Below, piece by piece: positions 1,362-23,823 of a stretch of 64,000 nt of DNA. Both the position numbers and the translations under genes were made by a program. How positions within the stretch are numbered: the first letter of the stretch is position 1; each line of letters starts with the position of its first letter. Location: the NCBI GenBank assembly GCA_046155985.1, contig JBJXGM010000129.1:2773-66772 (forward strand), written 5' to 3'. The notes below the pieces were generated by a model. It did not search any database, was not told the DNA's origin, and saw only the letters and a program-made list of their open reading frames with translations. The stretch is from Myxococcaceae bacterium. Its GTDB lineage: Bacteria > Myxococcota > Myxococcia > Myxococcales > Myxococcaceae.

Positions 1362-1604
1362 TTACTCGCAGAGGAAAACGTCCGAGCAACCCACAGTGGG
1401 CCCGCAGCTGCAAGTGTATGGTACGTCCGTCTGCGCGGGGCAATCACAAGTGCCGCCATTGTTACAGCCAGCCCACGTGGAGTTTCCCGGGCAGCCACCC
1501 CAACGGCCTGCCGTGAGGTTGTTAGCCCCACCCTGTGCGGAGCTCAGGTCAGACAAGTTTTCGATAACGGTTTTCTTTAGCGACAGCTTTGCGCGCTTTT
1601 TCAT
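1362..1604 (-). CDS. lanA: class I lanthipeptide precursor peptide (80 aa) with a double-glycine leader
   Basis: The leader is MKKRAKLSLKKTVIENLSDLSSAQGG. The 54-aa core contains 8 Cys and 9 Ser/Thr (…GGCPGNSTWAGCNNGGTCDCPAQTDVPYTCSCGPTVGCSDVFLCE). AGGAG lies 4 nt before the ATG. The gene is divergent from lanC, and lanB and a C39-ABC exporter are in the same locus. Confidence 0.85.
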   Translation of the reverse strand: MKKRAKLSLKKTVIENLSDLSSAQGGANNLTAGRWGGCPGNSTWAGCNNGGTCDCPAQTDVPYTCSCGPTVGCSDVFLCE

Positions 1605-1649
1605 GTGGCTCCTGAACTTCGGTTGTGTGGTGAAGCGGGGTAGGTCAAC

Positions 1650-1665
1650 AGCAAGTTTCGCACCA
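1650..1665 (-). promoter_or_regulatory. sigma54 (-24/-12) promoter candidate upstream of lanA
   Basis: The minus strand reads TGGTGCGAAACTTGCT against the consensus TGGCACG-N4-TTGCW. The GG and GC dinucleotides are at exactly the canonical spacing and the TTGCT -12 element is intact. The site lies about 45 nt upstream of the lanA ATG (1604). Confidence 0.6.
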
Positions 1666-22600: not shown

Positions 22601-22885
22601 TTCGCGGGCCCGCTCTCGGAAGACCATCCGTTGTCGTCTGGCGTGCAGATACTCGAGGAGCGCTCCAAAGCGGTGCGCCCAATCGCCTCTGCACTTTGGG
22701 AGTTGGAGAAGCAAGGCGGGTTGACATGCCAAGTTCAGGAGTTGCTGCGGGCGTACCTCCATCTTCAGATAAACCGGTACTTGCGGTCTACGCCGCGCGA
22801 GCAGGAGATGGCGATGTACGACATGCTTCGGCGACACTATGAATCGCTCATCGCTCGCGCGCGCAAACGAGGAAGGTTTCCATGA
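19637..22885 (+). CDS. lanB: full-length class I lanthipeptide dehydratase LanB (glutamylation plus elimination domains)
   Basis: The N-terminus FFVFRTPLLPL is typical of the Lant_dehydr_N domain. The C-terminal SpaB_C-type segment reads YLKLYTGAATADQLL … WFFIRYGDPDWHLRVRLF. There are ATGA overlaps with lanT (19637-19640) and with the downstream bEBP (22882-22885). Confidence 0.9.
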   Translation: MRKTNTVPASSAAPPACAEFFVFRTPLLPLAELVELGHDMRAPTAHADALAGALEHDAEVVRHRLRQAFDRAELREALMVASPSLQGSFGEWLRAPKSERGQKVERSLIRYFSRMTFRATPFGLFAGGSVGAVGERTRLVVGERGSYRHHARLDMHYLAILAEALARDPSIAPSLTYSVNSSLYRVGKAVRFAEARSSTGGVSYRLVGAEHSDYLERVLSRAQHGAKLEEIIDVLTMDPEIERAEATEFLAELVRSQVLVPELQPGVTGGAPLQALTAALAADTSSQPVARVLAGVADQLEAINRAPLGLSPRLYDDVASALESLSAPIDRAKLIQVDMTKPAPRAELGAKLVAEINTGVGILLSLERPRGAGGLSRFKEAFERRYERQEVPLVEALDGELGIGFERASEASSPPQGGALPKSPSAQTAGSWGHREAHLLTLLQRLPADGSVPLELSAQDLVSLARDRAPRPLPNAYAVSATVDAASETGLESGDYTVHIRSAYGPSGALMLGRFCHTDSALEAYVRAHLKHEEAHEPGAIVAEIVHLPEGRLGNVLHRPVLREYEIPYLGRSGAPVDHQIPVTDLLVSVRFGRVVLRSRSLDREVVPRLTTAHNFSSGLPLYRFLCALQNQDNSVGARWDWGVLGNLPFLPRVTHGRFVFSLAQWRIAAAEIKSLHGATVEQNYAAVQQLRVRRHLPRWFGLVESDNVLLIDSHNPLSVQSFVELTHRGGSVQLQELFPAPDRLLAEGPEGRFTHELVLPLNKPLSPVRRVDGRNFRAPQTSPLVQRSLPPGSECLYLKLYTGAATADQLLQERVAVFVEQALQSGLAERWFFIRYGDPDWHLRVRLFGDKKRLWSELWPQIEGFFDPQRTGSKVWRVQLDTYERELERYGGPQGMVLSERLFDADSKAALAIVAATGDDESQELRWRLTLMGMDRLLDDFALEQPAKRDMMLSSRDAFAPELEGNAKLERTLGQRYRQERKTFDEAFAGPLSEDHPLSSGVQILEERSKAVRPIASALWELEKQGGLTCQVQELLRAYLHLQINRYLRSTPREQEMAMYDMLRRHYESLIARARKRGRFP

Positions 22886-23823
22886 TTGGTGACTCGCCTT
22901 CCTTTAAGGCGATGCGTTCCACCATGGTGCGCGTTGCGCGCGCGGACGCCAGCGTTTTGTTGCTGGGGGAAACAGGTACCGGAAAGGAAGTTGCCGCCCG
23001 GTTCATTCACTTGAATAGCAAGCGATCGAAAGCGCCCTTCATCGATGTGGATCTGGCGGCTCTTCCCGAGGCGCTGCTCGAATCCGAACTCTTTGGGCAT
23101 GAGGCGGAGGCCTTCACGGGCGCCACCAAAATGCGCCGCGGTCGCATCGAGCTGGCGCATGAAGGAACACTTTTCATCGACGAGATCGGCAATTTGCCCA
23201 TGGCCCTTCAGCCGAAGCTCTTGCGCGTTCTCCAAGAGAAGACCTATGAGCGGCTGGGGTCATCGGAGAAGAGAGTCTCGAAGTTCAGACTCATCGCGGC
23301 CACGAACCTGAATCTGGAAGAGGCCGTCGCCGCTGGCACGTTCCGCCAGGATCTGTTGTTTCGAATTAACACGGTGCAGTTCGAGATTCCTCCCCTGCGG
23401 CAGCGGTTGAACGACATTCTCGCGTTGGCGGAACACTTTCTTGAGGTGTATGCCAGGGAAGCCGGAATCACCGGGATTGAACTTCTTGAAGAAGCGAGAC
23501 GAGCACTTCTGGCGCATCCCTGGCCTGGCAACGTCAGAGAACTCAAGCATCTGATGGAACGGACGGTTGCACTTTCTGAGAACGGAACGAAGTGGGGCGC
23601 AGAGATACTCAGTTCGCGCGAGCAGCGAAAGCCTTTCCAAATCGAGGTGGACGAGGGCCTCACCGAAGGTCGCGGCCTTGACGAGATTTTGCGAGGCATC
23701 GAGCGCAGGATTCTGTTGACCGTGTTACGCGAATGTCAGGGCAATCACAGCGCGGCTGCGCGCAAGCTCAAGCTTCCGCGCCAGACGCTTCAGAACCGGC
23801 TGAGTAAGTACGATTTGCTCTAG
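22882..23823 (+). CDS. sigma54-dependent transcriptional activator (bEBP) with AAA+ and Fis-HTH domains only and no sensory domain
   Basis: The protein begins directly at the AAA+ module (MIGDSPSFKAM…LLLGETGTGKE). The GAFTGA-type loop reads ESELFGHEAEAFTGA and Walker B reads TLFIDEIG. Further motifs are RLIAATN, NVRELKH and the C-terminal HTH NHSAAARKLKLPRQTLQNRL. Confidence 0.9.
   Translation: MIGDSPSFKAMRSTMVRVARADASVLLLGETGTGKEVAARFIHLNSKRSKAPFIDVDLAALPEALLESELFGHEAEAFTGATKMRRGRIELAHEGTLFIDEIGNLPMALQPKLLRVLQEKTYERLGSSEKRVSKFRLIAATNLNLEEAVAAGTFRQDLLFRINTVQFEIPPLRQRLNDILALAEHFLEVYAREAGITGIELLEEARRALLAHPWPGNVRELKHLMERTVALSENGTKWGAEILSSREQRKPFQIEVDEGLTEGRGLDEILRGIERRILLTVLRECQGNHSAAARKLKLPRQTLQNRLSKYDLL

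Follow-up and report, generated by a model that had tools for sequence, protein, structure and literature searches.

A class I lanthipeptide gene set beside a FAAL-PKS megasynthase with an unusual terminal C domain in a Myxococcaceae genome: a candidate lipidated lanthipeptide pathway

The DNA analyzed here, hereafter the window, is a stretch of 64,000 nucleotides from a Myxococcaceae bacterium (assembly GCA_046155985.1, contig JBJXGM010000129.1, positions 2,773 to 66,772 of the forward strand). It carries the genes of a class I lanthipeptide (lan) system together with an 8-kb gene for a fatty acyl-AMP ligase (FAAL)-polyketide synthase (PKS) megasynthase, whose last domain belongs to the condensation (C) domain family known from nonribosomal peptide synthetases (NRPSs); this domain is called C* below. 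Together, these genes may encode a lipidated lanthipeptide. The source is a metagenome-assembled genome (MAG), and the GC content is ∼61% throughout. Gene calls were based on an open reading frame (ORF) listing and on Pfam and NCBIfam scans (Table 1). A first-pass annotation, made from the sequence alone, had placed a lanA-like precursor, LanC, a full-length LanB, a C39-ABC exporter, a bacterial enhancer-binding protein (bEBP), a phosphopantetheinyl transferase (PPTase) and the megasynthase in this region, and all of them were found at those positions. The Pfam scan of 1-24 kb that it had called for confirmed its gene content and domains, except for the labels of the adaptor and of the C domain, which were corrected.

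Table 1. Features of the lan/megasynthase region, with positions in the window
Feature	Position	Strand	Basis
lanA precursor, 80 aa	1362-1604	-	leader family; no Pfam/NCBIfam match
Candidate sigma-54-like -24/-12 element, TGGTGC-N5-TTGCT	1650-1665	-	consensus scan, position
lanC cyclase	1759-3168	+	PF05147 6e-32
Hypothetical protein with signal peptide	3279-4250	-	ORF/domain scan
AAA_14/DUF4143 ATPase	4761-5915	+	Pfam
87-aa ORF and PIN toxin (VapBC-like pair)	6044-6726	+	Pfam
Sfp/HetI-type 4'-phosphopantetheinyl transferase (PPTase)	6964-7713	-	PF01648 and PF22624
Megasynthase, 2600 aa	8011-15813	+	Pfam, motifs
FAAL	∼8044-9729	+	homology to characterised FAALs
First acyl carrier protein (ACP1)	Ser motif GLDSL at 9871	+	motif
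Ketosynthase (KS)	10060-11508	+	DTACSSS, EAHGTGT, GHLEAAAG intact
Acyltransferase (AT)	11632-12573	+	GHSVGE
Ketoreductase (KR)	13453-13989	+	GGTGALG, YAAAS, LAD motif
Peptidyl carrier protein (PCP)-like carrier	LGGDSL at 14329	+	motif
C* domain	14458-15810	+	PF00668 6e-23
C* active-site motif HRLVSDQ	14896-14916	+	replaces HHxxxDG
GAF, transmembrane segment and short HlyD-like adaptor module	15857-17440	+	GAF 1.4e-8
lanT, C39 double-glycine peptidase and ABC exporter	17433-19640	+	Pfam/NCBIfam
lanB, full-length, glutamylation and elimination domains	19637-22885	+	PF04738 6e-160, PF14028 2e-61
bEBP (Sigma54_activat AAA+ and HTH_8)	22882-23823	+	Pfam/NCBIfam

Judged by their conserved motifs, the lan genes are intact and not decayed, a possibility that the first-pass annotation had left standing. 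The LanA precursor reads MKKRAKLSLKKTVIENLSDLSSAQGG up to the leader/core border after GG and continues with ANNLT.... Its leader (KLSLKKTVIENL...AQGG) fits the LxLxKx5L motif followed by a double-glycine site, which was described for class I precursors of Bacteroidetes (Walker et al., 2020; PMC7268733), and aligns with dozens of LanB-linked precursors that likewise end in GG. The core comprises 54 residues with 8 Cys and 9 Ser/Thr, and it holds no Lys, as had been noted before. LanC, which may actually begin 3' of the GTG at 1759, keeps the zinc-site motifs AHG, WCYG and CHG when aligned to 8byk and NisC; every column that is invariant across a 24-sequence family alignment is also present in LanB; and the C39 domain of LanT retains the Cys, His and Asp residues that are present in LahT150, a double-glycine peptidase (6mpz, 7e-25). 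Models of LanKC and LanL matched the cyclase part only and far below their cutoffs, and the locus represents a LanB plus LanC system rather than class III. Three features of a class I system are present: a LanB with both PF04738 and PF14028, a LanC with zinc motifs and a precursor with a leader and a Ser/Thr/Cys-rich core. In comparison with the LxLxKx5L/GG class I clusters of the Bacteroidota/Acidobacteriota/Myxococcota type (PMC7268733), the window has the same full-length LanB, LanC, C39-ABC LanT and short HlyD adaptor. It differs from them in that lanC is detached from lanB, that a PPTase gene and the FAAL-PKS-C* gene are embedded, and that the bEBP gene is coupled to lanB.

The same features bear on a quite different role for LanB. 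Lantibiotic dehydratases have been annotated in about 2000 NRPS/PKS clusters, but these are enzymes that form amides and are similar to peptide aminoacyl-tRNA ligases (PEARLs) (PMC11212132), and the 'lantibiotic dehydratase' of the window might act on the PKS product instead of a ribosomal peptide. However, PEARL-like enzymes come without an elimination domain or a LanA (PMC11212132), whereas here PF14028 is fused to the LanB and a LanA, a LanC and a GG-cleaving LanT are present. This explanation was therefore rejected, its probability being close to negligible.

The gene between the megasynthase and lanT had been called a HlyD-like adaptor, although Pfam finds only a GAF domain in its product. 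The C-terminal third, with a transmembrane segment and a barrel-like part, shares 32% identity with the short adaptor that follows LanB in another lan locus (L001; E = 3e-11), and an orthologous 693-aa protein (L030) combines GAF with HlyD_3/Biotin_lipoyl_2. On account of these two relatives, the C-terminal module can be considered HlyD-like, and the earlier label holds for that part of what is a GAF-HlyD fusion. Fusions of a cytoplasmic N-terminal GAF domain to a HlyD-type adaptor were observed in 12 class I lan loci of Acidobacteriota and Myxococcota (L020, L022, L030, L036, L040, L042, L045, L047, L049, L065, L067 and L069). Such recurrence suggests ligand-gated export or regulation.

Pfam analysis of the megasynthase gave the order AMP-binding (FAAL), phosphopantetheine-binding carrier, KS, AT, KR, carrier and Condensation. 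This agrees with the FAAL-ACP-KS-AT-KR-ACP-C order proposed before, except that the terminal C domain is similar to epimerization (E) domains and has an HR motif. The NCBI protein starts at 8011 and not at 7771, and has 2600 aa (P0126, MFN0063756.1). The motifs of KS, AT, KR and both carriers are intact, the second carrier having a PCP-type GGDSL. The first domain was assigned as a FAAL by homology (7r7g, 2e-121, followed by Legionella and E. coli FAALs and FadD32, FadD23 and FadD28, the matches including 3kxw and 3pbk); a DIP2-like C-terminal domain and the carrier directly downstream also fit. The PPTase, encoded divergently from the megasynthase, is ACPS/HetI-like and matches the HetI model NF042922 at 6e-37, below the cutoff of that model. 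Cyanobacterial olefin synthase and CurM-type modules have the order FAAL-ACP-KS-AT-KR-ACP and carry out one C2 extension to a 3-hydroxyacyl thioester. The window megasynthase follows this order up to the second carrier, and C* replaces their sulfotransferase-thioesterase off-loading pair. No orthologue of the megasynthase could be identified by whole-protein search. The best FAAL-PKS matches had 34-51% identity over 33-86% of the length and ended in a thioesterase (TE) domain, a reductase (R) domain or extra modules; one of these relatives, from another Myxococcaceae MAG (P0205), ends in TE and has no lan neighbours.

With regard to the terminal domain, starter-C, LCL, CT-like and PapA-like types had been put forward for comparison; in the searches, E domains were closest both by sequence (TycA and GrsA, ∼1e-22) and by predicted fold (TM-score ∼0.65). 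An AlphaFold model of C*, of moderate confidence (pLDDT only 63.5) and used for fold class only, matched C and E domains with a Foldseek probability of 1.0. The EGHGRE motif of E domains, found in 110 of 154 relatives, is absent and reads TSRGRD. Thus, C* shows neither the canonical C motif (the second His of HHxxxDG) nor the motif pair of E domains (HHxxxDG plus EGHGRE). As in A-PCP-E modules such as TycA and GrsA, a GGDSL carrier lies directly upstream, and chain-releasing C domains (enacyloxin Bamb_5915) are an earlier example of a PKS chain being passed to a free nucleophile. Among the fold neighbours of C* itself, the enacyloxin domain 6cgo is a structural precedent for C-domain release from a PKS. 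Unlike these E and release C domains, C* has TSRGRD and HR, terminates a PKS module and is followed by no C domain or carrier-bound acceptor.

To characterize the distribution of this domain, C* was searched by exhaustive phmmer against 1.84 billion representative proteins. Besides ordinary NRPS E domains, only three close single-domain relatives were returned (P0346, P0382 and P0377), which share SDQ or SDA (HHxxSDQ/HHxxSDA) and GIDLSRT and lack EGHGRE. Two of them (P0346 and P0382) are standalone proteins and the third, P0377, carries the domain as part of a FAAL-PKS; in protein clusters, each of the four C*-clade proteins is a singleton. A word-indexed search with C* gave only five A-PCP-C fragments of 26-29% identity, which were uninformative, and the contig of P0346 (1.8 kb) is too short for gene context.

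P0377 is a protein of 2841 aa with the order FAAL-ACP-KS-DH-ER-KR-PCP-C* (DH, dehydratase; ER, enoylreductase), and is 51% identical to the window megasynthase over FAAL-ACP-KS and 34% over KR-PCP-C*. Its gene lies on a 19.4-kb contig of the Logan assembly SRR31724203 (locus L084; GC 55%), only 124 nt from a divergent lanB-lanC-hlyD-hlyD-lanT(C39) cluster that also includes a luciferase-like oxidoreductase gene. Just after the PKS gene, an 81-aa LanA is encoded, which reads MKSRIRSLRKVVLRELNEPEASKVVGG up to the leader/core border and then TDPSQFHC...TCEC; it has a GG leader and a core of 54 residues with 9 Cys and 0 Lys. The Pfam families recorded for the genes of L084 include no GNAT. L084 thus resembles the window in its FAAL-ACP-KS...KR-PCP-C* logic, its C*-clade domain, its 54-residue Lys-free LanA core, its C39 LanT and its HlyD proteins. 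On the other hand, its PKS has DH and ER and lacks an AT, the PKS gene runs divergently to the lan operon instead of preceding it, the HH motif is preserved, and no GAF, bEBP or PPTase was found on the 19-kb contig. The two loci differ in GC content (61% vs 55%), gene order and PKS reductive domains.

Comparison of the LanB sequences revealed that the L084 LanB is 38.7% identical to that of the window, compared with 43-44% identity to several LanBs without a PKS. Because it is closer to these PKS-free LanBs, the two PKS-linked clusters span, by sequence identity, two LanB lineages and are not simply one inherited unit. Since both of the FAAL-PKSs with a C* tail (2/2) adjoin class I lan genes and the two differ in arrangement, PKS reductive chemistry and LanB lineage, a chance association is unlikely. 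The evidence therefore supports a lanthipeptide-PKS pairing that is real but rare (n = 2), and the earlier proposal that the PKS and the lan genes belong together gains independent support from P0377/L084. The search for co-occurrence of PKS relatives with lan genes gave a divided answer: no megasynthase orthologue was found, P0377 is lan-linked, and P0382 and P0205 are not.

Gene content, domain order, the catalytic motifs (intact except in C*) and the second, independently arranged FAAL-PKS-C*/lan locus are directly seen, whereas the peptide as destination of the acyl chain, its acceptor site, the chemistry of the chain and co-transcription are inferred. In our opinion, the chances are about even that the region 1.3-23.9 kb combines an intact class I lan set, of a family widespread among Gram-negative or soil bacteria, with an acquired, self-contained lipid-building unit of Sfp PPTase and megasynthase, and that C* would off-load the acyl chain onto the modified LanA. 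First, the FAAL would adenylate a free fatty acid and load it onto ACP1, and KS, AT and KR would then lengthen it by one C2 unit, leaving a 3-hydroxyacyl thioester on the second, PCP-like carrier; in L084, the chain would instead be saturated. Second, C*, as a member of an E-derived clade with HHxxSDQ/A and without the epimerase Glu, would transfer this chain to the LanB/LanC-modified LanA. That a very rare E-derived C-domain clade indeed attaches a carrier-borne PKS acyl chain to a class I lanthipeptide is a tentative proposal, to which we give somewhat less than an even chance. The most plausible acceptor would be the N-terminal amine freed by the cytoplasmic cut of the LanT C39 domain after GG, because the LanA cores of both the window and L084 are free of Lys, and otherwise a Ser/Thr hydroxyl; with the N-terminal amine as acceptor, acylation would be tied to C39 cleavage and export. 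Finally, LanT and the HlyD-like adaptor would export the lipopeptide. A Pfam scan of 13 ORFs in 1-24 kb gave no GNAT, A domain or downstream carrier, so that no alternative acceptor pathway is apparent.

Previously characterized lipopeptides among the RiPPs (peptides made by ribosomes and modified after translation), that is, selidamides, lipolanthines, goadvionins, lipoavitides and aphotorhaptins, all receive their acyl group from GNATs (PMC13647313), usually at the N-terminus once the leader has been removed (PMC13647313; PMC7540663). Like the window, lipolanthines (microvionin), goadvionins, selidamides and related systems have a ribosomal peptide cluster beside fatty-acid or polyketide machinery, and an acylated RiPP is likewise predicted for the window. 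They differ in that they use a GNAT, and lipolanthines a class III synthetase (PMC7540663), whereas the window has class I LanB/LanC and, as a candidate, an in-cis NRPS-type C domain. Some biosynthetic gene clusters of all four lanthipeptide classes encode polyketide or fatty-acid machinery, according to a general remark only (Walker et al.; PMC7268733). Because the known lipidated RiPPs cited in a 2026 paper (PMC13647313) all use GNATs, a C-domain route would be new, and the earlier remark that a class I lanthipeptide lipidated by an in-cis C domain was not recognised as described agrees with this literature.

Several observations weigh against lipidation of the lanthipeptide by C*, and they are considered here together with the explanations that compete with it. 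Acylation by a C domain has no example among known RiPPs (PMC13647313), the pairing was sampled only twice (n = 2), and the N-terminal amine would arise only at the export step. In addition, mobile-type genes (VapBC, DUF4143) part lanA/lanC from the PKS. The intervening genes (the hypothetical protein, the DUF4143 ATPase and the VapBC-like PIN pair; 3279-6726) had no tblastn match in 83 loci of LanB relatives or in 82 later loci including L084, and they are probably unrelated or inserted. For the genes at 4761-6726, this absence from related lan loci suggests that the DUF4143 ATPase and VapBC-like pair were inserted between lanC and the PPTase/PKS unit. The hypothetical protein also showed no similarity to a PA-domain fragment of L084. 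Positions 1-1304, directly beside lanA, contain broken ORFs that overlap and a fragment (166-684) of an IS630-type DDE_3 transposase.

The occurrence of PKS genes in lan loci was examined for the relatives of LanB, of which there are hundreds at 42-48% identity in Acidobacteriota, Myxococcota, Planctomycetota and Actinomycetota. Within 83 loci, each searched by tblastn together with flanks of at most 10 kb per side (less at contig ends), LanC was detected in 52, LanT in 41 and the N-terminus of the GAF adaptor in 12, and KS, AT, KR or C* in none. The usual order is lanA-lanC-lanB-(short adaptor)-lanT, compared with the detached lanC of the window, and L030 has the same GAF-HlyD/lanT/lanB genes as the window with nothing PKS-like upstream. 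Because none of the 83 loci carries a PKS, the PKS is, on this survey, a rare accessory rather than a trait of the lan family, which does not need it; lan genes routinely without a PKS were among the findings that the first-pass annotation had held to speak against a hybrid pathway. A scan of JGI metagenomes with the C*-clade alignment revealed no further member of the clade: all 80 loci were ordinary NRPS E domains (HHxxVDG plus EGHGRE), and no LanB was present. Finally, no lan genes surround the standalone P0382 (L085); its neighbours are genes for FAAL, ACP, acyl-CoA ligase and methyltransferase, along with one for a Cys-rich protein with a signal peptide.

These data would fit two independent neighbouring clusters brought together by island clustering, in which the PPTase and megasynthase would yield a lipid that C* sets free, such as an ester or amide of a 3-hydroxy fatty acid or an N-acyl amino acid, and the lan genes an unacylated lanthipeptide. 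The absence of the PKS from the LanB relatives, the position of GAF-HlyD as the first gene of its own operon in relatives, the toxin-antitoxin (TA) and DUF4143 genes and insertion sequence (IS) fragments nearby, and the lan-free neighbourhood of P0382 all agree with it. However, the only other C*-tailed FAAL-PKS again adjoins lanB, lanC, lanT and a LanA, in another arrangement and with another LanB lineage, and chance adjacency was roughly estimated at ∼1e-3 to 1e-2 per locus, which makes two out of two unlikely. Moreover, no amino-acid-activating enzyme or other acceptor pathway is found at either locus. We therefore regard two independent clusters as rather unlikely.

Some other loci in these searches deserve mention. 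In L085 (GCA_034680565.1), the protein of 118-142 aa encoded at 4797-5225 (- strand), beside P0382, FAAL and ACP, has a signal-peptide-like N-terminus and is very Cys-rich; it could be a non-lanthipeptide acceptor for the C* clade. In a Terriglobia MAG (L064, JAIQGL010000002.1, 3216-9401, + strand), the gene for a 2061-aa hydrolase/amine-oxidase/FAAL/ACP/thioesterase protein immediately precedes that for a LanB homologue, LanC and LanT are absent within 10 kb, and this FAAL-LanB pairing differs from that of the window. In Pyxidicoccus sp. 3LG (L002, 11083-15765, - strand), the gene for a 1560-aa formyltransferase/AMP-binding/luciferase-like/AMP-binding/phosphopantetheine-binding protein converges on lanC-lanB, representing another lan-cluster neighbour that bears a carrier protein.

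The junctions described in the first-pass annotation were borne out. The megasynthase stop codon ends at 15813 and the adaptor ATG lies at 15857, leaving a gap of 43 nt that holds a ribosome-binding site; the adaptor and lanT genes overlap by 8 nt (17433-17440), and ATGA overlaps join lanT to lanB (19637) and lanB to the bEBP gene (22882). Scans for sigma-70 promoters and terminators, which are weak for Myxococcota, showed nothing, terminator-like sites included, that would part 15813 from 15857, so the sequence is compatible with a single PKS-adaptor-lanT-lanB-bEBP transcription unit. The earlier claim that the PKS and the lanthipeptide enzymes form one unit is sustained to that extent, but lanA is on the minus strand, and lanA and lanC are set apart by other genes. 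Joint transcription of PKS and adaptor is not a conserved feature, the PKS being divergent in L084. It also counts against lipidation by C* that GAF-HlyD heads its own operon in relatives, with no PKS upstream, and co-transcription of the PKS with the lan operon may therefore be recent or incidental.

A more direct objection concerns the active site of C*. In canonical C and E domains, the second His of HHxxxDG serves as the catalytic residue, and in C* (HRLVSDQ) it is replaced by Arg, whereas HH is kept in 148 of 154 relatives. Because of this replacement, the proposed transfer step may be impaired: acyl transfer in the window genome may be weakened or dead, or the Arg may be an assembly error. 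One alternative is that the pairing worked in an ancestor, as in L084, and that the lanthipeptide of the window, if made at all, has lost its lipid after inactivation of C* and breakage of the cluster by mobile genes. The three clade relatives all have HH, the Arg codon CGC (14899-14901) is a single G/A transition away from His CAC, lanC no longer stands beside lanB as it does in most relatives, and IS and TA genes lie in or near the cluster. This scenario has to be set against an undamaged 2600-codon ORF with all other catalytic motifs in place, and against lan genes that are intact and translationally coupled. In addition, the second His is not strictly essential in some C domains, and the Arg codon may be a consensus error, the genome being a MAG. 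A decayed hybrid therefore appears improbable.

HR is also the state of the non-catalytic X domain of glycopeptide synthetases (HRxxxDD). The two gene sets might be linked in function without a covalent product, either because the PKS lipid serves as a cofactor or signal (a GAF ligand or an inducer of the sigma-54 system) or because C* is a non-catalytic docking domain like the X domain. The location of the GAF-adaptor fusion directly downstream of the PKS would be consistent with such a link, as would the bEBP, whose gene is translationally coupled to lanB and which lacks an N-terminal sensor domain of its own. Among the fold neighbours of C* are the X domains 4tx2 and 6m7l, but only as distant ones, and the clade relatives keep HH. 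Furthermore, GAF-HlyD fusions occur in 12 lan loci without a PKS, L084 has plain HlyD proteins, no GAF and an intact HH, and Pfam scans found no P450 in the cluster, nor is there another enzyme that could be recruited. We consider a non-covalent link to have only a slim chance of being correct.

Under the preferred reading, in which C* lipidates the lanthipeptide, lanA is probably activated by the bEBP at a sigma-54 promoter. A sigma-54-like element is located 46-61 nt upstream of the lanA ATG, and only one other TGG-N8-TTGCW site occurs in 25 kb; over the whole window, matches to the sigma-54 consensus were not above chance (35 vs 36 expected). The element at 1650-1665 is a plausible candidate target of the cluster bEBP, position being the sole argument.

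On the 3' side, the cluster is followed by genes for a Ser/Thr kinase, dnaN (25804-26910), recF (27754-28887) and then gyrB. The latter (29733-33890, + strand) is split by an intein, with Intein_splicing and LAGLIDADG_3 between the Toprim and GyrB-insert domains of a 1385-aa ORF. With dnaN, recF and gyrB nearby, the lan/PKS locus is chromosomal and may be close to the replication origin.

Daptomycin, polymyxin and other lipopeptides come from NRPSs, and RiPP lipopeptides are sought as alternatives to them that genes can encode directly. If our reading is true, C* would be the first NRPS-type C domain with a ribosomal peptide as acceptor, and the products would be the first family of lipidated class I lanthipeptides, in Gram-negative soil bacteria. 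The two loci offer a natural comparison, between a 3-hydroxyacyl and a fully reduced chain and between HR in the window and HH in L084. Such a pathway would connect assembly-line with ribosomal biosynthesis in a new way and provide a new tool for lipidating encoded peptides with PKS-tailored tails, and its producers would be under-explored bacteria of the Myxococcota type.

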